This document shows positions 20,526 through 31,682 of a stretch of DNA of 32,588 nt, piece by piece; positions within the stretch are counted from its first letter, which is position 1; the number at the start of each line of letters is the position of its first letter. Origin of the DNA: Dehalococcoidia bacterium (GTDB lineage Bacteria > Chloroflexota > Dehalococcoidia > DSTF01 > JACRBR01); the NCBI GenBank assembly GCA_041494685.1, contig JBGQBE010000039.1, positions 1 to 32,588 of the forward strand. The letters run 5' to 3'. A model generated the notes under the pieces. It had not been told where the DNA came from. It saw nothing but the letters and a program-made list of their open reading frames with translations, and made no database searches. Both the position numbers and the translations under genes were made by a program.

Positions 20526-21602
20526 CTAGTGCGCGTGCGCTGCGGGGTCCGTCGCGTCCGCGGCGGGCGCCAGCGTGCCGCCCGTCTTCAGCGAGGCGAT
20601 CGCGTCGCCCAGCACCTTGGCCAGGTCGTTGTAATTCAGGCTGTCCTTGTACACCACCGGGATGACCATGCCCCCGTTCGCCAGCGCGATGTTCAGCGAC
20701 TTGCCGTCCGGGCCCATCACGTGAGACAGCGTGTGGCAGTGGAAGATCCACGCCCCCTTGCCCGGCGCGTTCATCTTCACTTCCACGTCGATCGTCTGCC
20801 CCGGCGCGATCCAGACTGTGTTCTCTACCTGCGGCGCATTGCCGCCTTGCTCCTCCGTGCCGTCCCGCGCGATCTCCTTCACGAAGTGCCCGTGGAAGTG
20901 CATCGGGTGGCCTTCCAGCGGGCTGATGTTGATCATCCGCACGCGCAGCAAGTCGCCCTTCGTCACGATCCACGGGTCGATGTTCGGGAACTCCTTGCCG
21001 TTGATCAGGTAGTGCCCGTCGATGTTGTTGAGGAGGACGATGTGCTCCTGGTCGTACTTGCCATCGCCGCCGTCCCGCGGGTCGACGATGAAGGCCCCGC
21101 TCAACCCTTTCGACACCTGCAGCATGTCGTCCATGTGTGCGTGGTACATGAACGTCCCCGGCGTGTTCGGGATCGTGAACTCGTAGACGAACGTCTCGCC
21201 TGGCATGATCGGCGGCATCGTCAGGCCGCCCACGCCGTCCATCGAGTTCGGCACGACCAGCCCGTGCCAGTGCACGGTCGATGCCTCGTCCAGGTCGTTG
21301 CGGTAGTAGATGCGCACCTTGTCGCCCGGCTTGAAACGCAGCGTCGGGCCCGGGATCTGGTTGTTGTACCCCCAAACCTCCTGCGGCGGCTGGTCGTCGC
21401 GGAACTGCCACATGAACTTCGAGCTCGTCAGGTGGACGGTCTTCCAGTCGCCGTCCTCGATCGTCACCACCGCCTCCTTGGGGCCATAGTGCTCGGTCGC
21501 CGCCCGCGCGTGCCCCGAACCGCCCTGGAAGGCGAGCAAGGCGACGATAGCGGCGCCGGCCAGCATCGCTACCCATGAGGCCATGAACCATTTGCGTTGC
21601 AT
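20526..21602 (-). CDS. Secreted two-domain multicopper oxidase (type B, T1 site in domain 2)
   Basis: N-terminal signal/TM. Domain 1 has HWHG and YHAH (no Cys). Domain 2 has HPMHFHGH and HCHTLSH. AAGGAG RBS. Confidence 0.88.
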   Translation of the reverse strand: MQRKWFMASWVAMLAGAAIVALLAFQGGSGHARAATEHYGPKEAVVTIEDGDWKTVHLTSSKFMWQFRDDQPPQEVWGYNNQIPGPTLRFKPGDKVRIYYRNDLDEASTVHWHGLVVPNSMDGVGGLTMPPIMPGETFVYEFTIPNTPGTFMYHAHMDDMLQVSKGLSGAFIVDPRDGGDGKYDQEHIVLLNNIDGHYLINGKEFPNIDPWIVTKGDLLRVRMINISPLEGHPMHFHGHFVKEIARDGTEEQGGNAPQVENTVWIAPGQTIDVEVKMNAPGKGAWIFHCHTLSHVMGPDGKSLNIALANGGMVIPVVYKDSLNYNDLAKVLGDAIASLKTGGTLAPAADATDPAAHAH

Positions 21603-21761
21603 CTGAGGCTCCTTCACCACTGCTTGAACACGTGTCCGCGCACATTTTCACGAGAGACGGTACAGGGAGAAGGGGCCGAAGGTCACGTTGCCGCGAGGAA
21701 CAGCGCCCAAATGATGAAACTGTGAGGCCGGTGAGGATCTGAGCGTCCTGCCGGCGCGAAA

Positions 21762-21790
21762 TTGACAGGCCGTACGGGCAAGACTAGAGT
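21762..21790 (+). promoter_or_regulatory. Sigma70-type promoter for the riboswitch/treT operon
   Basis: TTGACA (21762-21767), 17 nt, TAGAGT (21785-21790). Confidence 0.8.
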
Positions 21791-21814
21791 GGAGAGACTG
21801 GGCGATGCCAAATT

Positions 21815-21956
21815 CGTGCGCGACCGCGCGCGGAGCGGGGGATCCGGTTCCCGGGGCGCGTGAGCGCCACGGGTTGGGGTGGATCCCGCCGAACGGCGGG
21901 TAAGGCCGCTCTCAGGTCTGAATCCGACAGCTAACCCCGCAGGCAGCGCAGAGAGG
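21815..21956 (+). ncRNA. c-di-AMP riboswitch (ydaO/yuaA class)
   Basis: Blocks in consensus order: GAGCGGGGGATCC ... GGGGTGGATCCC-hairpin-GGGTAAGG ... CTGAATCCGACAGCTAACCCCGCAGGC. TGCGC/GCGCA forms the closing stem and CTCTC/GAGAG a pseudoknot pair. It lies between the promoter and the GAGGAGG RBS. Confidence 0.88.
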
Positions 21957-22038
21957 CTCACTCCCGGGTCGGCGTGTCCCGGGCTGCGCCATCGCATGGC
22001 TCTCTTGTCATCGCGCACAGAAGCATGAGGAGGACCGT

Positions 22039-23289
22039 ATGTACGGCACACTCTCGCTTTCGCATCGGGCACTCGACGACCTGACCGGCGTGGCGGGCGA
22101 CGCCGCCATCAAGGAACTCCGCGACCTCGCGCGCCCCATCGAGGGGCTCCGCGTCCTCAACCTCAGCGCCACCGGGTTCGGCACCGGCATCGCCGAACTC
22201 CTCAACTCGTCCGTCCCGCTGCTGGTGGACCTCGGGCTGGACGCGCGGTGGCAGGTCGTACGGGCCTCCGAGGACGCCGCCGCCGTCGGCCGCGCGATGT
22301 ACCAGGCGCTCGGCGGTATCTGCGTCGCCTGGACACAGGACATGACCGACACCTGGTTGCGCTACGCCAGCATGAACGCCGACCTGCTGACGGAGCCGTT
22401 CGACGTCATCATCGTCCACGATCCGCAGCCCCTGGCCATCCGCTCGTTCGTCGAGACCAACACCGACGCGATGTGGGTCATGCACTCCCACCTCGACCTC
22501 TCGTCAGCGCAGGATGACGTCTGGATGCTCCTCCGCGGTCACATCGAGAACTACGATCTGGCGATCTTCGATGCCCCGCAGTTCGTGCGGCAGGACCTCA
22601 ATATCGACACGCGTGTCGTGTTCCCCGCGATCGACCCGAACAGCGCGCGCAACATGCCGCTGCCCGACGACGTCATCCGGCGCGTGCTCACGCAGTACGG
22701 CATCGACCCGACGCGCCCCCTCGTCTGCCAGATCTCGCCCTGCGACGTCGAGAGCGACCTCGTCGGCGCGGTCGATGCCTGGTCCGCCGCCCGCGCGCAG
22801 CGCCCGGATCTCCAGCTCGTGATGGTGCTCACCACCGAGCCCCACAATCCCGCCGGCCGCGCCTGCTACGAAGAGTTGGCGCGCCGCTGCCACAACGAGC
22901 CGGACGCCTTCATCGTCGCGATGGGCCGGGAGCCTGGCAACGTCGAGATCAACGTCTTCCAGCGCGCCGCCTCGGTCGTCATGCAGAAGGGCCTGCGCAA
23001 GGGCTTCGGGCTCGGGATCTCGGACGCCCTCTGGAAAGAGCGCCCCTGTGTCGTGGCGCCCGTCGGCGGCCTCACCGAGCAGGTGCTCGATGGCCGCACT
23101 GGCCTGATCGCGCGTACCTCCGCCGAGTTCACCTCCGCGATCGGGCGCCTGCTCTCCGAAGCTGGCCTGGCGAGAGAACTCGGGGAGAACGGCCGCCGGC
23201 ATGTGGCGGAACGCTTCCTGATCACGCGCTATCTTCGCGACTACCTTCTCATCCTGAACGAACTGCACAGGCCGGCAAAGGCAACATAG
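22039..23289 (+). CDS. TreT-like GT4 glycosyltransferase paralog with degenerate active-site motifs
   Basis: Collinear with the next gene (HDPQP, PAIDP, EINVFQRAA, RFLITRYLRDYL). It has QISPCDVESD where the next gene has QISRFDPWKD, and RKGFGLGISD where it has REGFGLVVSE. Confidence 0.85.
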   Translation: MYGTLSLSHRALDDLTGVAGDAAIKELRDLARPIEGLRVLNLSATGFGTGIAELLNSSVPLLVDLGLDARWQVVRASEDAAAVGRAMYQALGGICVAWTQDMTDTWLRYASMNADLLTEPFDVIIVHDPQPLAIRSFVETNTDAMWVMHSHLDLSSAQDDVWMLLRGHIENYDLAIFDAPQFVRQDLNIDTRVVFPAIDPNSARNMPLPDDVIRRVLTQYGIDPTRPLVCQISPCDVESDLVGAVDAWSAARAQRPDLQLVMVLTTEPHNPAGRACYEELARRCHNEPDAFIVAMGREPGNVEINVFQRAASVVMQKGLRKGFGLGISDALWKERPCVVAPVGGLTEQVLDGRTGLIARTSAEFTSAIGRLLSEAGLARELGENGRRHVAERFLITRYLRDYLLILNELHRPAKAT

Positions 23290-24578
23290 TGCTGGGCTCA
23301 GTCCCGACCACGCCCAAGTCCCTCGAGTCCTATCGTCCGATCATCGGCGACGACCGGACGGAGGAGATCCGCGCGCTCGCGGAGCGGCTGCGCGGGGCAC
23401 GGGTGCTGCACGTGAACGCCACGGCGTTCGGTGGCGGCGTCGCCGAGATCCTCGCGACGATGGTCCCGCTCTTGAACGACGTCGGCCTTGATGCCGACTG
23501 GCAGGTCATCAAGGGCGCCGACGAGTTCTTCAACGTCACCAAGGCCATGCACAACAGCTTGCAGGGCATGTACTACGACTGGACCCCCGCGATGCGGGAC
23601 ACCTGGCTCAACTACAACCGCGTGAACGCGGAGTTCTTCGACGAGGAATACGACTTCGTCGTCATCCACGACCCGCAGCCCGCCGCCATCCCCACGTTCC
23701 TCCAGGAGCGCGACGGCCGCCGTCCCGGCAAGTGGGTCTGGCGCTGCCACATCGATCTCACCGCCGCCCAGGTCCAGGTGTGGGATTTGCTCCGCCCGCA
23801 TATCGAGGGCTACGACGCGGCGATCTTCACATTGCCCGACTATGCGAAGGACGACCTCGCCAGCCCCCGGATCTTCGCCATCCCGCCCGCCATCGACCCC
23901 CTGAGCCCGAAGAACGCCGACCTGCCCCGTTCCACGGTCAACGACATCCTGGCACGCTACGGCGTCGACCCGGCGCGGCCGATGATCACCCAGATCTCGC
24001 GGTTCGACCCGTGGAAGGACCCGCTCGGCGTCATCGACGTCTACCGCGCCGCGAAGCGCGAGTTCCCGGACCTCCAGCTCGTGCTGATCGCCTCGATGGC
24101 CAGCGACGACCCCGAGGGCTGGGACTGGTACGAGCGCACCGTGCGTCGCGCCGGCGAAGATTTCGACATCCACATCCTCTCCAACCTCAATGGCGTCGGA
24201 AACATCGAAGTCAACGCGTTCCAACGGGCGGCGCGCGTCGTACTGCAGAAGTCCATACGAGAGGGGTTCGGTCTCGTAGTGTCGGAGGCCTTATGGAAGG
24301 GACGTCCAGTGGTCGCGGGGAACGTGGGCGGGATCCCGTTGCAGATCGAGGATGGGCGCACGGGGTTTCTGGTGAACTCGGCAGACGAATGCCTGGAAAA
24401 GCTGCTATACCTGCTGCAACACCAGGTCGAAGCAGACCGGATGGGAGCGGCGGGAGTAGAGTTCGTCCGGGACAGGTTCCTGATGACGCGTTATCTGCGG
24501 GACTATCTGGACATGTTTGGTCAGCTCTCGGCAGCCCCGTCCTCAACGTCGGGGCCAGGCCAGCGCGTGCACCGCTAG
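23289..24578 (+). CDS. treT: Trehalose synthase TreT (GT4)
   Basis: NATAFGGGVAEIL, FFNVTKAMHNSLQG, IHDPQP, WRCHID, QISRFDPWKDP and QKSIREGFGLVVSEALWKG. The GTG start overlaps the upstream TAG. Confidence 0.9.
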   Translation: MLGSVPTTPKSLESYRPIIGDDRTEEIRALAERLRGARVLHVNATAFGGGVAEILATMVPLLNDVGLDADWQVIKGADEFFNVTKAMHNSLQGMYYDWTPAMRDTWLNYNRVNAEFFDEEYDFVVIHDPQPAAIPTFLQERDGRRPGKWVWRCHIDLTAAQVQVWDLLRPHIEGYDAAIFTLPDYAKDDLASPRIFAIPPAIDPLSPKNADLPRSTVNDILARYGVDPARPMITQISRFDPWKDPLGVIDVYRAAKREFPDLQLVLIASMASDDPEGWDWYERTVRRAGEDFDIHILSNLNGVGNIEVNAFQRAARVVLQKSIREGFGLVVSEALWKGRPVVAGNVGGIPLQIEDGRTGFLVNSADECLEKLLYLLQHQVEADRMGAAGVEFVRDRFLMTRYLRDYLDMFGQLSAAPSSTSGPGQRVHR

Positions 24579-24592
24579 AACAAGGGATATCG

Positions 24593-25885
24593 ATGAAGCG
24601 CGTCGTGGCACTGGTCCTCGCCGGCGGGCAGGGCGACCGTCTCAGCGTACTCAGCGAAGAGCGCGCCAAGCCCGCCGTCATCTTCGGCGGCCGTTACCGG
24701 ATCATCGACTTCGCCCTCAGCAACATCGTGAACTCCGGCATCTCGCGCGTCGGCGTGCTCACCCAGTACCGCCCCCGCTCGCTCAACGACCACATCGGCA
24801 TCGGCCGCCCGTGGGATCTCGACCGGCAGGGCGGCGGTGTCACGCTGCTCCAGCCCTACCTCGGCCGCGAAAGCTCCGACTGGTACCGCGGCACGGCCGA
24901 CGCCGTCTTCCAGAACATCTACTTCCTCGAGGAGACGCGCGCCGAGATCGTCCTCATCCTCGCGGGCGACCACATCTACAAGATGAACTACGACGAGCTC
25001 ATCTCCTACCACGTCTCCAAGGGCGCCGACGTCACCGTGCCGCTGTACCAGGTGCCGATGGAGCAGGCGCACCGCTTTGGCGTCCTCACCACTGATGCCG
25101 ACAACCGCATCGTCGAGTTTGAGGAGAAGCCCGACCACCCGCGCTCCAACCTCATCTCCATGGGCATCTACGTCTTCAACCGCCAGACCCTCATCGATCA
25201 ACTCGTCGCCGACTCCCAGCGCGACTCCACGCACGACTTCGGCGCCGACGTCATCCCGGCCATGGTTGAAGACCCCGGCATGCGCGCCTTCGGCTACCCC
25301 TTCAACGACTACTGGCGCGACGTCGGTACGATCGAGTCCTACTACGACGGCAACATGGACCTGCTGGAAGACCTGCCGTCCCTCAACATGTATGACCCGG
25401 ACTCCCGCATCCGCTCGCGCGTCACCGGCTTCCCGCCCGCGAAGGTCGGTCACCGCGCCTACATCTCCCGCTCCCTGCTCGACCTCGGCTGCATCATCAA
25501 CGGCCACGTCGAGCACTCGGTGCTGTCGCCCGGCGTCTACGTCGAAGAGGGCGCGGTCGTCCGCGACTCCATCATCTTCGACAACTGCCGCATCGAAGCC
25601 GGCGCGATCGTCGAACGGTCGATCATCGACAAGGACGTGCTCGTGGGCAAGAACGCCTACGTCGGGTACGGTGATGACTGGACGCCGAACCTGGAGCGCC
25701 CCGACATCGTCAACTGCGGCATCACGATCGTCGGCAAGCGCGCGAAGCTCCCGCCGTACACGCGCGTCGGCCGCAACTGCGTCATCGGCCCGAACGTCAC
25801 GGTGACTGCGCCCGGCGACGACGGCTACGTCCCGAGCGGCACGACGATCCGCGGATCAGGCAAGCACTTCCCGCATACGGTATGA
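24593..25885 (+). CDS. glgC: Glucose-1-phosphate adenylyltransferase
   Basis: LAGGQGDRL, RAKPAVIFGGRYRIIDFALSN, WYRGTADAV, GDHIYKMNY, FEEKP, HDFG, YWRDVGT and a C-terminal beta-helix. Confidence 0.95.
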   Translation: MKRVVALVLAGGQGDRLSVLSEERAKPAVIFGGRYRIIDFALSNIVNSGISRVGVLTQYRPRSLNDHIGIGRPWDLDRQGGGVTLLQPYLGRESSDWYRGTADAVFQNIYFLEETRAEIVLILAGDHIYKMNYDELISYHVSKGADVTVPLYQVPMEQAHRFGVLTTDADNRIVEFEEKPDHPRSNLISMGIYVFNRQTLIDQLVADSQRDSTHDFGADVIPAMVEDPGMRAFGYPFNDYWRDVGTIESYYDGNMDLLEDLPSLNMYDPDSRIRSRVTGFPPAKVGHRAYISRSLLDLGCIINGHVEHSVLSPGVYVEEGAVVRDSIIFDNCRIEAGAIVERSIIDKDVLVGKNAYVGYGDDWTPNLERPDIVNCGITIVGKRAKLPPYTRVGRNCVIGPNVTVTAPGDDGYVPSGTTIRGSGKHFPHTV

Positions 25886-25888
25886 CGG

Positions 25889-26044
25889 GACCGAGAACCA
25901 AGAACCTAGAACCTAAGAAGCAGCACCAAGAACCTAGAACCGAGAACCGAGAACCGAGAACCGAGAACCGAGAAGCTGATACTCAGAACCTGAGCGGTGG
26001 TCTGCAGTCCGTCTTAGGTTCCAGGTTCTAAGCTCCTGGTGCTG
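25889..26044. repeat. (GAACCGA)n heptamer array with inverted degenerate copies
   Basis: Five perfect GAACCGA units at 25937-25971, plus GAACCAA/GAACCTA variants from about 25889. Segment 26013-26044 is an imperfect reverse complement of 25921-25951. Confidence 0.85.
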
Positions 26045-26057
26045 GCCCGGAGGGCCG

Positions 26058-27746
26058 TTGAAGCAAGGCGCGTTTACATTCGTCCTCCACTCACACCTGC
26101 CATACGCGCGGATGGCGGGCCGCTGGCCGCACGGCGAGGAGTGGCTCCACGAAGCGGCCGTCGAGACCTACCTGCCGCTCCTCGCCGCCCTCCACGATCT
26201 CGCGGAGCAGGGCGTCCGCTACCGCCTGACGATCAGCATCACCCCCGTGCTCGCCGAGCAGCTCGCCGACGCCGACGTGCTCCGCAATCTCGACGCCTAT
26301 CTCGACGACCTGCACGAACGCGCCGAGCGCGACGTGCGCCGCTTCGAGCGCGACGGCGACTCGCAGCGGGTGATCGTCGCCGCCTTCCACCGCGACCGCT
26401 TCGCGTGGCTGTCGCGCCAGTTCCGCCAGCGCTTCGACCGCGACCTCGTCGCCGCCTTCCGCTGGCTGCAAGATCACGGCTACGTTGAACTCGCCACCAG
26501 CGCCGCCACGCACGGGTACCTGCCGCTGCTCCAGCGCGACTCGTCCATCTACGCCCAGGTGCGCACCGGCGTGCAGACCTACGAGCGGCACTTCGGCCGC
26601 AAGCCGGAGTCGTTCTGGCTGCCGGAGTGTGCCTACCGCCCCTCCTATATCGCGTCCGACGGCACCCTCAAGCCGGGCATCGAGGAGTTCCTCGCCGGCC
26701 AGGGCCTGACCACGTTCTTCGTCGAGACGCACACCATCCTGGGCGGAGAGCTCGTCGGCAAGGCCGCCGGCGACGCCATCGGCCCGTACAGCGAGATCTC
26801 GCGCCGCTACACCGTGCCCGTGCCGCCCGACTCGCAGCCGGCGCACCGGACGACCTTCGAGCCGTACTGGGTCGCCGGGAAGCGCGTCGCCGCCATCGGC
26901 CGCAACGTCACCACCGGACTTCAGGTGTGGTCCGCCGAGCACGGCTACCCCGGCGACTTCGCCTATCGCGAGTTTCACAAGAAGGACGGCGAGTCCGGCC
27001 TGCACTACTGGCGCGTCACCGGCGCCGGCGTCGACCTGCACGAGAAGGCGCCCTACGACCCCCAGGCCGCGTTCGCGCGCGCGCACGAGCACGCCCGCCA
27101 CTTCGCCGCGCTCGTCGAAGAGCAGGTGCGCGGCTACCACGCGTCCAGCGGGCGCTATGGCATTCTCAGCGCCGCGTACGACACCGAGCTGTTCGGCCAC
27201 TGGTGGTTCGAGGGCGTCAGCTGGTTGCAGGAAGTGCTGCGCACCCTCGCCCGCAGCGACGCCGTCGAGATGACCGGCGCGGCGCAGTTCGTCCGCGAGC
27301 ACCCGCCCGAAGAGGCCGTCGCGCTGCCCGAGGGATCGTGGGGGCAGCAGGGTACGCACTTCGTCTGGAACAACGCCGACACCGCGTGGATGTGGCCCAT
27401 CATCAACGGCGCAGCCCGCCGCATGGAGGACATGGCGGCCCACTACGCCGGCGCCGCCGGCCCCGTCGCCGCCGCGCTCGCCCAGATGGCGCGCGAGCTG
27501 TTGCTGCTGGAGTCCAGCGACTGGCCGTTCCTCGTCACCACCGGCCAGGCCCGCGCCTACGCCGAGCTCCGCTTCGCCGAGCACGTCGAGCGCTTCGAGC
27601 GCCTCGCCGCCCAGGTCGAGGCGGGCGAGGTGGACGCGGCCTACCTGGCCGACCTCGCCGAGCGCGACAAGCTCTTCGCGGACGTCGCGCCGGCTGACTT
27701 CCTGGCGCGCGAAGGCGTCGCCGCGCCGCCCCAGCGCGCCCTGTAG
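26058..27746 (+). CDS. GH57 1,4-alpha-glucan branching enzyme (DUF1957 type)
   Basis: FVLHSHLPY, GEEWLHEA, ATHGYLPLL, FWLPECAY, YREFH, YDTELFGHWWFEG, EGSWG and ELLLLESSDWPF. Confidence 0.93.
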   Translation: MKQGAFTFVLHSHLPYARMAGRWPHGEEWLHEAAVETYLPLLAALHDLAEQGVRYRLTISITPVLAEQLADADVLRNLDAYLDDLHERAERDVRRFERDGDSQRVIVAAFHRDRFAWLSRQFRQRFDRDLVAAFRWLQDHGYVELATSAATHGYLPLLQRDSSIYAQVRTGVQTYERHFGRKPESFWLPECAYRPSYIASDGTLKPGIEEFLAGQGLTTFFVETHTILGGELVGKAAGDAIGPYSEISRRYTVPVPPDSQPAHRTTFEPYWVAGKRVAAIGRNVTTGLQVWSAEHGYPGDFAYREFHKKDGESGLHYWRVTGAGVDLHEKAPYDPQAAFARAHEHARHFAALVEEQVRGYHASSGRYGILSAAYDTELFGHWWFEGVSWLQEVLRTLARSDAVEMTGAAQFVREHPPEEAVALPEGSWGQQGTHFVWNNADTAWMWPIINGAARRMEDMAAHYAGAAGPVAAALAQMARELLLLESSDWPFLVTTGQARAYAELRFAEHVERFERLAAQVEAGEVDAAYLADLAERDKLFADVAPADFLAREGVAAPPQRAL

Positions 27747-27828
27747 GCGTCCCCCCTTCCCACGCCCCCTCCCGCCGCCGATGTCTTAGACTGGGACGAC
27801 CGTCGCCGGCGGTTGCGGGAAGGGGACT

Positions 27829-29130
27829 ATGGCCACGATCTACTGGGCCTCGTTGCTGCACTTCTACCAGCCTCCGATCCAGCTGCCGGAGGTGCTGCGC
27901 AAGGTCGTCGACGAGTCGTACCGGCCGCTGATCGACGTCTTCAAGCAGAACCCCCACGCTCGCGTCTCGGTCAACATCAACGGCGTGCTCACGGAGATGC
28001 TGTACGAGAGCGGCTACCAGGACGTGATCGACGGCCTGCGCGAACTGGCCGAGGGCGGCCAGGTCGAGTTCGTGGGCTCGGCCAAGTTCCACGCCATCCT
28101 GCCGCTGATCGACGAGTCCGAGCAGCGCCGCCAGATCCGCCGCAACCACCTGACCAACCGCCACTTCTTCGGCGAGGTCTACCAGCCGCGCGGCTTCTTC
28201 CCGCCGGAGATGGGCTACGACCGCTCCATCCTGGAACCGATCCTGGACCTCGGTCACGAGTGGGTGATCATGAGCGGCGTCGCCTGCCCCGCCGCGTGGC
28301 CGACCACGTCGATCTACGAGACGAAGTCGGACGACGGCAACGCGATCGCCGTGATCTTCCGCGACGACGTGCTGAGCAACAAGATCTCGTTCCAGGACAT
28401 GGACGGCAAGGCCTTCGTGTCGCACCTGCGCGCCACCTACGGCAACGACCGCGACATGTACATCGTCACCGCGATGGACGCCGAGACCTTCGGCCATCAC
28501 ATCGAGAACTGGGACCAGCTTTTCCTCGCCGACGCCTACGAGGCCGTCGCCCCGTACGCCGGTGTCGTCCAGCCGCGCTCGCTCGCCGCCAGCACGCGCA
28601 CGCTGCTCACGCTGACCGAGCGCGACGATGTGCCGGACCCCGTCGTCGCGACGACCATCAGCGGCCTCTTCGATCGCTTCCCGCGCGGCGAGGACGTCGA
28701 TCCGCGCCCGGCGTCGTGGAGCACCACGCACGCCGACCTGGATGCCGGCGTGCCGTACCCGCTGTGGCAGGCGCCCGGCAACTACATCCACAAGCTGCAG
28801 TGGGAGCACGTCGATGTAATGTCCCGGCTCGTCGCTACCGCCCAGGACGCGGCCGACACCCCGATCTCGCGGCGTCACGCCGAGATCGCGCGCGGCCTGA
28901 TGGATCCCGCCCTCCACTCCTGCCAGTTCTGGTGGGCCAGCCGCCGCCCGCACTGGGACGTCAACATGATCGCGCGCGGGCTCGCCCAGCAGGAGGGCGT
29001 CATCGTGAACGCGTTCCGCGCCATCAACCTCAGCGACGCCGCCGAGGAGACGAAGCGCGAGGCGTACTACCGCGTCGTCGCTTCGCGCGACATCCGCGAC
29101 AAGATCCACGACCAGCTCTTCTGGGACTGA
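27829..29130 (+). CDS. GH57 family glycoside hydrolase (amylase/glucanotransferase/amylopullulanase-like)
   Basis: LHFYQP, HAILPL, GFFPPEMGY (nucleophile), AMDAETFGHH (acid/base), ASWS and HSCQFWWA. Confidence 0.88.
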   Translation: MATIYWASLLHFYQPPIQLPEVLRKVVDESYRPLIDVFKQNPHARVSVNINGVLTEMLYESGYQDVIDGLRELAEGGQVEFVGSAKFHAILPLIDESEQRRQIRRNHLTNRHFFGEVYQPRGFFPPEMGYDRSILEPILDLGHEWVIMSGVACPAAWPTTSIYETKSDDGNAIAVIFRDDVLSNKISFQDMDGKAFVSHLRATYGNDRDMYIVTAMDAETFGHHIENWDQLFLADAYEAVAPYAGVVQPRSLAASTRTLLTLTERDDVPDPVVATTISGLFDRFPRGEDVDPRPASWSTTHADLDAGVPYPLWQAPGNYIHKLQWEHVDVMSRLVATAQDAADTPISRRHAEIARGLMDPALHSCQFWWASRRPHWDVNMIARGLAQQEGVIVNAFRAINLSDAAEETKREAYYRVVASRDIRDKIHDQLFWD

Positions 29131-29137
29131 TCCGCCC

Positions 29138-29602
29138 TTACGCCCGCACCTCGAAGATGAACTCCGCCTCGACGCTCGCGCCCAGCGGCAGCTCGGCCAC
29201 GCCCACCGCCGCGCGCGCGCCCAGCCCGCCGTCGCCGAGGACCTCGCGCAGCAGATCCGATGCGCCGTTCGCCACCGTCGGCTGGTACGTGAAGCCGGGC
29301 GCCGACGCCACGTACACCGTGCTCTTCACGACGCGCGCCACCCGGTCCAGCGAACCCAGTTCCTTGCGCGCGATCGCCAGCGCCGAGATCGCGCAGCCGC
29401 GCGCGGCCTCCTTGCCCGACTCCACGTCGATCTCCCGCCCGAGCTTGCCGGGGTGCAGCGGCCGCCCGTTCTCGACCGCGATCTGGCCCGAGATGAAGAG
29501 CAGGTTGCCGCTCAGCACCGCCGGCACGTAAGCCCAGCGCGGCGCGCCCACGGGCGGCAGGGTGATCCCCAACTCGATGATCCGCTGGTCGGGCGTGCCC
29601 AT
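29138..29602 (-). CDS. RidA/YjgF family protein
   Basis: LGITLPP...YVPAVLSGNLLFISGQ, QPTVANGASDLL and ARAAVGVAELPLGASVEAE. Confidence 0.92.
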   Translation of the reverse strand: MGTPDQRIIELGITLPPVGAPRWAYVPAVLSGNLLFISGQIAVENGRPLHPGKLGREIDVESGKEAARGCAISALAIARKELGSLDRVARVVKSTVYVASAPGFTYQPTVANGASDLLREVLGDGGLGARAAVGVAELPLGASVEAEFIFEVRA

Positions 29603-30989: not shown

Positions 30990-31682
30990 ATGGACAGCGC
31001 AGGAAGCGCCAATCTACAGTCAGGGTTCGTGCTGGCAGCCGTGCTGGCGGCGGTGCTCTTCGCCGGGCGGCTCGGCGGCACCGACGAGGTTGCCCGCCGC
31101 ATCTACCAGGTGGCGCTGGGCGCGGTGCTCGCGTTCCTCGTCATCGCAGGCGTGACCGCATTCATCCGCCCGCCCAGCGTTCCGGAGGGCGTGCTGAGCG
31201 GTTCTTCGTCGTCATCGTCGTCGTCGTCGTCGTCGTCATCGTCCTCCTCCACGTTCGACGGAGGGGACACCAATTCGTCGCAGTCACAGGACGCCGGGCG
31301 GGCGTACCTCAAGGACCTCGCCGACCACGAGGCCACCGCGCGGTCCGTCCGCGCGGGCGTTGGCCTGCTGATCCTGATCGGCGGGCTCGTGGCGCTGGGC
31401 AAGCGCCCCACCGTCGCTCTCGGTGCGGCGCTTGGCGGGCTGCTGCTCGTGCTGCTCGGCGGCTCAAGCTCTACGGGTGGCGGTGGCTCCGACATCTTCA
31501 GCTCGCTGCTCGGCGTCTACTCCGGCGTGCTGGGGGCGGCGCTCGGCTCGTCGTCACGCGGCCTCGATATCGCCCACTTCGGCGTGCTGGCGGGCGGCGC
31601 GGTGGCGCTGCTCCTGTTCGGGCTGCTGCGCTGGGACGTGGATGAGCCGGCCGCCCTGCCCGCGCCCGTCCCCGACGCGTGA
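30990..31682 (+). CDS. Hypothetical membrane protein with a 16-Ser tract
   Basis: Multiple hydrophobic segments. Poly-Ser is encoded at 31203-31250. Confidence 0.7.
   Translation: MDSAGSANLQSGFVLAAVLAAVLFAGRLGGTDEVARRIYQVALGAVLAFLVIAGVTAFIRPPSVPEGVLSGSSSSSSSSSSSSSSSSTFDGGDTNSSQSQDAGRAYLKDLADHEATARSVRAGVGLLILIGGLVALGKRPTVALGAALGGLLLVLLGGSSSTGGGGSDIFSSLLGVYSGVLGAALGSSSRGLDIAHFGVLAGGAVALLLFGLLRWDVDEPAALPAPVPDA

Follow-up and report, generated by a model that had tools for sequence, protein, structure and literature searches.

A c-di-AMP riboswitch predicted to control a trehalose-synthesis operon in a Dehalococcoidia bacterium

Organization of the Locus

We analysed a 32,588-nucleotide stretch of DNA from a Dehalococcoidia bacterium (contig JBGQBE010000039.1 of assembly GCA_041494685.1; hereafter the window), in which an RNA leader with a predicted cyclic di-AMP (c-di-AMP) riboswitch precedes five genes on the + strand. 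A first-pass annotation had read these genes as a pseudo-TreT, TreT, GlgC and two members of glycoside hydrolase family 57 (GH57), and family and domain matches agree. The first gene (22039–23289) encodes a 416-aa protein with a Pfam TreT_GT1 domain and a TreT fold in which donor-binding residues are replaced. Its stop overlaps the start of the second gene (23289–24578), which specifies a 429-aa TreT trehalose synthase, also with a TreT_GT1 domain and with every motif intact. These are followed by glgC (24593–25885), assigned by curated family cut-offs, whose product is a 430-aa ADP-glucose pyrophosphorylase; by the gene for a 562-aa GH57 protein of branching-enzyme type (26058–27746), recognised by Pfam and motifs, with a BE_C domain and catalytic Glu and Asp motifs; and by a second GH57 gene (27829–29130, 433 aa), identified in the same way, which carries the catalytic Glu and Asp motifs. 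The 3′ boundary of the cluster is a convergent gene on the − strand (29138–29602), placed in the Rid family by family match.

A sigma70-type promoter, TTGACA-17-TAGAGT (−35 element, 17 nt spacer, −10 element), is present at 21762–21790 (+ strand), as the first-pass annotation had proposed. As a single site the match is only at chance level (shuffle test: 1 found, 0.8 expected), and we credit it because footprinting found the pattern upstream of the orthologue at 43 of 44 loci, compared with 45 of 3000 random 520-nt windows of the same genome. No internal promoter-like sites were found in the operon, either in the window or in 18 relatives, and the intergenic stretch at 25886–26057 between glgC and the branching-type GH57 gene is likewise free of them. 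This stretch consists of heptamer repeats with a partial inverted copy (z −1.6, not significant). The genome has 9 runs of at least 3 heptamer units, and heptamer-like runs of other sequence occupy the same junction in some relatives. An overlapping 717-aa open reading frame (ORF) at 23732–25885 was rejected as a separate gene, being the GlgC frame read from a far-upstream codon.

A c-di-AMP Aptamer and the Cognate Signalling Machinery

The leader between the promoter and the ATG at 22039 contains an aptamer followed by a predicted expression platform. The earlier reading of this RNA as a ydaO/yuaA aptamer was upheld by a cmsearch against Rfam RF00379, in which positions 21796–21960 (+ strand) scored 68.5 bits against a gathering cut-off of 38 (E 4.7e-14). 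The match spans the full model (1–134) and is the sole Rfam match in the window. In the last aptamer stem a compensatory A:U pair (21903:21919) stands in place of the consensus G:C, and position 21882 is a G where the near-invariant consensus base is A. Judged by its sequence, the aptamer is a real member of the known c-di-AMP riboswitch class, with the expected logic.

The host genome (97.6% complete) encodes one CdaA-type cyclase (DAC), followed by a gene whose translation looks CdaR-like by eye, together with a 7TM-7TMR_HD protein, which carries the PgpH-type phosphodiesterase domain. From the presence of these genes, the host is predicted to make c-di-AMP. Five RF00379 matches were found in the genome, none of them directly 5′ of a recognised potassium transporter. 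Their targets are the treT cluster, a TPS-TPP fusion, a GT2 protein of 620 aa and two small ORFs that have no match in Pfam. The TPS-TPP fusion (L010:568–2766, + strand, contig C22) scores above the PRK14501 cut-off and lies behind a 97.9-bit c-di-AMP riboswitch located 93 nt before the TPS domain match, giving the host a second riboswitch on a trehalose gene. The gene for the GT2-family protein (L012:563–2425, + strand, contig C11) has a third GH57 gene transcribed divergently from it. The small ORFs (L013:3543–3749, − strand; L011:787–951, + strand) would encode proteins of 68 aa, with paired cysteines, and 54 aa, and an Nramp-like gene lies 1.3 kb downstream of the latter.

The Predicted Expression Platform

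Downstream elements, all on the + strand, can be arranged in two mutually exclusive states. The 5′ strand of the aptamer pseudoknot lies in the loop of the last aptamer hairpin (21909–21913) and was identified by complementarity to the 3′ strand (21951–21955). The latter, supported by complementarity and folding, is shared with the base of a predicted antiterminator hairpin (21953–21993), the tail's minimum free energy fold if the pseudoknot strand is left free, corresponding to the ligand-free state. In the ligand-bound state, folding predicts a weak terminator-like hairpin with an imperfect U-tract (21988–22008). The first-pass annotation had held that no U-tract terminator follows the aptamer, and in this it was mistaken: a weak one exists, consisting of a 5-bp hairpin at 21988–22000 (−5.4 kcal/mol) and, after it, 8 nt of which 5 are U. 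It includes the second CTCTC that the annotation had noticed near 22000, that we place at 22000–22004 and that could alternatively pair with the ribosome-binding site. Terminator-like sites occur in this region at chance frequency (3 found, 3.0 expected), so the standing of the candidate rests on its position and on the relatives.

When the RNA was truncated at the U-tract, the modelled probability of the 21988–22000 hairpin was 0.11 with the pseudoknot strand free and 0.99 with it blocked. Pseudoknot complementarity amounts to 5 bp in the window and to 4–7 bp in all 18 leaders compared, where some of the changes are matched; most of these leaders can form a long post-aptamer hairpin that has the pseudoknot 3′ strand in its base, and in several relatives an overlapping hairpin and then a U-run come after the aptamer. 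Folding of the whole leader against shuffles gave no extra stability (z −0.45), a measure that is uninformative at this GC content. Full-leader folds also allow the segment 22000–22010 to pair with the first gene's Shine-Dalgarno sequence (22027–22033, + strand), and predict this pairing in both modelled states. Translational control, one of the options offered at first pass, may operate too, and a terminator/antiterminator component is likelier than was first thought. The best reading of the modelled leader is a c-di-AMP OFF switch that may act by termination, translation or both.

Distribution Across the Order

The comparison covered 60 relatives and the host genome, 61 genomes in all, from a Dehalococcoidia-related order of uncultured Chloroflexota. 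A scan for treT pairs returned 46 loci, three of which were dropped (one without pseudo-treT, two without upstream DNA). The aptamer lies directly 5′ of pseudo-treT in 17 of the 43 relative loci, or 18 of 44 with the window; broken down by family, the figures are 17/32 in the host's own family and 1/4 and 0/8 in two others. Aptamer-free treT leaders are short, or are long with aptamer-like remnants discernible by eye (G003, G007, G020, G057, L125). The pseudo-TreT tree implies at least five riboswitch losses in the family and seven changes in all.

The same riboswitch recurs on the TPS/TPP route. From 62 TPS matches, 58 were used after removal of 4 partial rows, and 34 of these have a riboswitch no more than 1.6 kb upstream among the 150 of 229 riboswitch matches listed; a scan of 20 of the other 24 TPS leaders added 4 more. 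Counted by genome, 36 of the 40 that bear TPS have a riboswitch no farther than 1.6 kb upstream of otsA. In two genomes (G038 and G042) glgC itself has a promoter, an aptamer and a similar platform directly upstream, and the treT pair is absent from the locus. In these loci (L211:803–2089 and L212:945–2231, + strand) a tldD-like gene comes after glgC, and neither genome (both of one genus, 98% and 85% complete) yielded a glgA. The union of genomes with a riboswitch on the treT pair, otsA or glgC is 53 of 61, accounting for roughly a quarter of all riboswitch matches. One unpublished genome (G021) is counted once in the 18 and once in the 53, and also entered the motif, folding and tree sets; its removal alters no conclusion.

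The central proposal of the first-pass annotation, that c-di-AMP gates the synthesis of trehalose and its ADP-glucose supply, gains from the otsA and glgC loci. Control of trehalose by c-di-AMP is supported because the riboswitch recurs on three different trehalose-synthesis steps across the order, heading the unrelated TPS/TPP route as well as glgC alone in two genomes. As far as sequence can tell, the link between riboswitch and trehalose is lineage-wide. Within the host's family the treT riboswitch is kept in 14 of 15 TPS-less genomes versus 3 of 17 TPS-bearing ones; a complementary distribution of treT riboswitch and TPS was not established, however, as independent pairs gave a median p of 0.22 and four of the TPS-less genomes are 51–70% complete.

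A Conserved, Residue-Substituted TreT Precedes TreT

The second gene of the cluster matches P. horikoshii TreT (2x6q) with E 2.7e-135 and has the TreT_GT1 domain, the GGG loop, the Arg/Lys pair and the E-x-F-G-L-x-x-x-E motif; its score of 497 is under the Thermococcales equivalog cut-off of 775. In the product of the first gene, numbering by the active neighbour first, the substitutions are G49 to T, H88 to Y, R238 to P234, K243 to S239, E325 to K321 and E333 to D329. The designation pseudo-TreT, made at first pass, holds well beyond the window: each of 42 orthologues out of 42 carries Thr as the third loop residue, Tyr for His88, Pro for Arg238, Lys or Arg for Glu325 and Asp for Glu333, and none retains Lys243. 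The neighbouring TreT retains those residues in 39–40 of 40 rows, one row being a broken fragment. In the alignment Glu325 falls on E326 of P. horikoshii TreT, which is the position mutated in PDB 2xmp, and roles of the Arg, Lys and Glu residues in nucleotide binding have been described for the related VldE (PMC3441724).

The loss of the R/K/E/E residues of active TreTs is combined with a retained fold. The predicted structure of pseudo-TreT (pLDDT 89.5) has TreT as its best Foldseek matches (TM 0.84–0.90, with 0.89 to T. uzoniensis TreT). Values of dN/dS of 0.07–0.25 in 11 pairs indicate purifying selection and rule out a pseudogene. From its sequence, pseudo-TreT looks catalytically dead yet conserved. 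In a FastTree analysis of 155 rows (130 full-length representatives among the best 150 matches, plus our own rows), all pseudo-TreTs group in a single clade (0.999), whose position next to the Chloroflexota TreTs is weakly supported. A duplicate at L142:6001–8596 (+ strand), located after glgA and before an intact treT, carries part of the pseudo-TreT substitutions and keeps the Arg and the last Glu; its sequence makes it a likely evolutionary intermediate.

Within the order, pseudo-treT is followed by an intact treT at 44 of 45 loci, the remaining one being cut by a contig end, and overlap of the pseudo-treT stop with the treT start in many loci suggests translational coupling. Given this overlap and the precedent of a T. 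tenax complex (PMC3634074), pseudo-TreT may be a non-catalytic partner of the trehalose-forming enzyme, serving it as a subunit for regulation or scaffolding. This is the weakest step of our interpretation, and we give it about even odds; it is also possible that pseudo-TreT is an enzyme with some different catalytic activity. That pseudo-TreT always requires an adjacent TreT was ruled out by distant members that precede otsA or stand alone, and a partner role would accordingly not be obligate. At L145:5672–8791 (+ strand) a riboswitch is followed by pseudo-TreT and an OtsA-like gene without an active TreT alongside, and lone pseudo-TreT genes occur at L205–L207, of which those at L205:3482–5991 and L207:2663–5251 are divergent from a gene that resembles, by eye, ribose-phosphate pyrophosphokinase. 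The host has a third TreT-family gene, intact and without a riboswitch, at L014:3462–4721 (+ strand, contig C18), between a P-type ATPase gene and acetate kinase/phosphoketolase genes.

GlgC and the GH57 Proteins

GlgC of the window exceeds the curated cut-offs of its family (431.4 versus 424.9 for TIGR02091; 492.8 versus 470 for PRK05293). It is encoded by the sole glgC of the host genome, in which glgA is located elsewhere and no GH13 branching enzyme (GlgB) was found. The 26058–27746 product has the GH57 and BE_C domains and scores under two lineage-specific equivalog cut-offs; it is of branching-enzyme type, with predicted branching activity. The link to glycogen and carbon storage drawn by the first-pass annotation is real here, given the sole glgC and the lack of a detected GH13 enzyme, and looks secondary to trehalose.

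The gene order pseudo-treT, treT, glgC is conserved, and a GH57-fold gene lies directly after glgC in 16 of 16 assessable riboswitch-positive loci. A GH57 pair is not a fixed part of the operon, being present in 10 of these 16, with a third GH57-fold protein of about 640 aa instead in the other 6. This protein occurs in 20 of the 61 genomes (for example L064:3962–5884, − strand), and its gene follows glgC or the second GH57 gene wherever the locus is readable. In several relatives it lies between the cluster and the Rid gene; in the window the second GH57 gene abuts the Rid gene. At least 430 homologues were found, with invariant Glu150 and Asp286 in GH57-like motifs. For the 640-aa protein the PDB yields no match by sequence, and pairwise comparison with the second GH57 of the window shows no similarity; the protein's model (pLDDT 93.6) has GH57 enzymes as best fold matches (TM about 0.4, 11–15% identity).

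The distribution of the 640-aa GH57 follows that of the treT riboswitch. It is encoded in 16 of the 18 riboswitch-positive genomes; the others that have it are G003, G007 and G057, with remnant leaders, and G012. It was not found in the genome of the window, nor in G023, whose contig ends in glgC. The two traits are concordant in 37 of 41 rows, and independent pairs changed the same way in 4.2 cases and the opposite way in 0.0 (median p 0.125, with pairs too few to reach 0.05), so that the association is suggestive, not significant. An association of the 640-aa GH57 with absence of TPS was unsupported (median p 0.625). Tracking of the riboswitch by this protein supports its proposed role as a glucose-supplying partner for TreT.

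Two further features of the window lie outside the cluster. A gene for a small two-domain multicopper oxidase (20526–21620, − strand) is divergent from it, an arrangement shared with 5 relatives, and an ORF with a long poly-serine run at 30990–31682 (+ strand) resembles a membrane protein and has no Pfam match.

Discussion

The stress messenger c-di-AMP is known to restrict the uptake of osmolytes and potassium. We read the leader as a c-di-AMP OFF switch controlling an operon for trehalose synthesis, a reading to which we assign a probability of roughly 0.7. We infer ligand binding and the direction of switching from the aptamer and its modelled tail. At low c-di-AMP, the 3′ strand of the aptamer would build the antiterminator and the operon would be transcribed. 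GlgC would then supply ADP-glucose; the GH57 enzymes, if their genes are co-transcribed with glgC as predicted, would remodel or degrade alpha-glucan and may yield free glucose; and TreT, presumably running in the synthetic direction and perhaps assisted by pseudo-TreT, would join ADP-glucose and glucose to form trehalose. TreTs accept ADP-glucose (PMC11046441). At high c-di-AMP, the pseudoknot would take the 3′ strand, and the downstream hairpin would terminate transcription, mask the ribosome-binding site, or both. Because glgC is single, glycogen synthesis would be throttled with the operon and would thus also be limited at high c-di-AMP.

Several observations weigh against this reading. 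The relatives are kin, so that counts among them are not independent. The survey of homologous treT pairs for the same upstream motif, a check named at first pass, found it in the 18 loci noted above and not in the other 26 of 44, whose leaders have no scoring aptamer. Outside the order a link to treT is seldom seen (1 of 15 and 1 of 20 loci, in samples that may overlap; the case in the 15-locus sample is L145). Pseudoknot covariation is weak (13–21 of 500 shuffles), and a 2-column slide pairs almost as well. The terminator of the window is itself weak, with a probability already of 0.40 when the whole leader is free and of 0.29 in a linker-only control. A U-rich tract is present in only 9 of 18 leaders and a switch is predicted in 5 of those 9; one of the five flipped in the control too, one has merely a 3-bp hairpin, and the count is sensitive to the pseudoknot tie-break (3 with the first rule, 5 after the change). 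Tail-only folding of six other riboswitches gave a terminator switch in 0 of 6.

Three alternatives were weighed. The one that survives best, which we consider unlikely, is that the regulon is real in the lineage while the copy in the window is decaying and no longer controls the operon, control having moved to the TPS-TPP fusion. Such a riboswitch-led fusion is present in the host, at least five losses in the family follow from the tree, and in the sister rows G004 and G020 (support 89/85) the leaders are long and contain no aptamer that scores. The window copy has one non-consensus base at a near-invariant position and a weak terminator, and the failure to find in the window the 640-aa GH57 gene that accompanies most treT riboswitches raises the chance that its riboswitch is being lost. 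Against decay, the aptamer scores 30 bits over the cut-off, has retained a compensatory pair, and is joined to an intact pseudoknot and antiterminator, both mutually exclusive with the hairpin.

A little less probable still is a switch that affects only how the first gene and, through coupling, treT are translated, with glgC and the GH57 genes as passengers. Hairpin and U-run terminators after the aptamer in several relatives, and retention of the riboswitch on glgC where the treT pair is absent, speak against such a restriction. The post-hairpin segment does pair with the Shine-Dalgarno sequence in full-leader folds, but the pairing is predicted in both states and so produces no switching in the model. 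Half of the leaders (9 of 18) have no U-tract, and in C. glutamicum a translational c-di-AMP switch affected just the first gene of a reporter operon (PMC9960051). Both points favour the restricted reading.

We regard as least likely of the three that the regulated output is carbon storage, with TreT reversed (trehalose and ADP to ADP-glucose and glucose) and acting with GlgC and the branching enzyme to feed glycogen: TreT of Thermococcales is reversible and the unit contains the sole glgC and sole recognisable branching enzyme, with glgA elsewhere in the genome, but the same riboswitch heads the synthetic enzyme gene otsA in nine-tenths of TPS-bearing genomes (36/40), heads glgC in two congeneric genomes (98% and 85% complete) that yielded no glgA, and heads glgA at none of its five positions in the host.

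The preferred reading, an OFF switch on trehalose synthesis, agrees with the RF00379 (ydaO/kimA) class in its full-length match, pseudoknot complementarity, predicted OFF logic and osmotic-stress context (PMC9960051, PMC7266159). It differs in its targets: those described in these accounts are potassium, amino-acid and osmolyte transporters and cell-wall enzymes, and those seen here are TreT, OtsA/B and GlgC. Members of the class are described as OFF switches: the one in B. subtilis acts through termination, that of C. glutamicum probably through translation (PMC9960051). Trehalose, otsA and treT are absent from the eight supplementary files of the RegPrecise survey (PMC3766115), and osmoprotectant synthesis is named for cyanobacteria only in general terms in a passage citing Nelson 2013 (PMC5986932). 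In a full-text literature search, no title or abstract opening tied the c-di-AMP riboswitch to TreT, OtsA or glgC; the gene lists of Nelson 2013 and Block 2010 were outside its scope and may name trehalose genes. The RNA class and its logic are known, and what is apparently undescribed is a biosynthetic regulon of unusual coherence.

The proteins of the operon also have partial counterparts. The second gene has every motif of the GT4 TreTs of P. horikoshii (2x6q) and T. uzoniensis (6zj4), and the first has their fold; unlike in those systems, a conserved residue-substituted duplicate precedes treT and glgC follows it. In the TPSP-GT complex from T. tenax, a co-encoded GT4-fold protein without synthase activity activates the trehalose-forming enzyme by complex formation (PMC3634074), but the GT there resembles PimA and is partnered by a TPS-TPP fusion, whereas the putative partner here is TreT, or OtsA in the distant L145. 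Synechocystis SbtB-GlgB likewise ties c-di-AMP to alpha-glucan metabolism and a branching enzyme, and its control of glycogen is a point in favour of the carbon-storage alternative; it acts at the protein level and is stimulatory, while control here would be at the RNA level, predicted to be repressive, and exerted on glgC and a GH57-type branching enzyme (PMC8654305).

A more ambitious joint claim can be framed, which we hold only tentatively and think doubtful as a whole. It states that c-di-AMP riboswitches govern trehalose synthesis throughout the order, and that the ancestral operon was an as yet undescribed TPS-independent route from alpha-glucan to trehalose in which GlgC provided ADP-glucose, the 640-aa protein, as a new GH57 subfamily, provided glucose, and an allosteric heterocomplex of TreT and pseudo-TreT formed trehalose. 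Lineages with a riboswitch-led TPS-TPP fusion would then have dropped the 640-aa GH57 and afterwards the treT riboswitch, and the window would be midway in that process.

If the OFF-switch reading is correct, the c-di-AMP circuit would extend from transport to central carbon flow, through RNA control of both the synthesis of a compatible solute and the only source of ADP-glucose, and would do so in the Chloroflexota, a phylum without such a riboswitch in the ydaO section of the RegPrecise survey (PMC3766115). The riboswitch would also serve as a functional label, pointing to an osmoprotective, synthetic role for bacterial TreT and to two uncharacterised conserved proteins, the TreT pseudoenzyme clade and a divergent GH57 subfamily.

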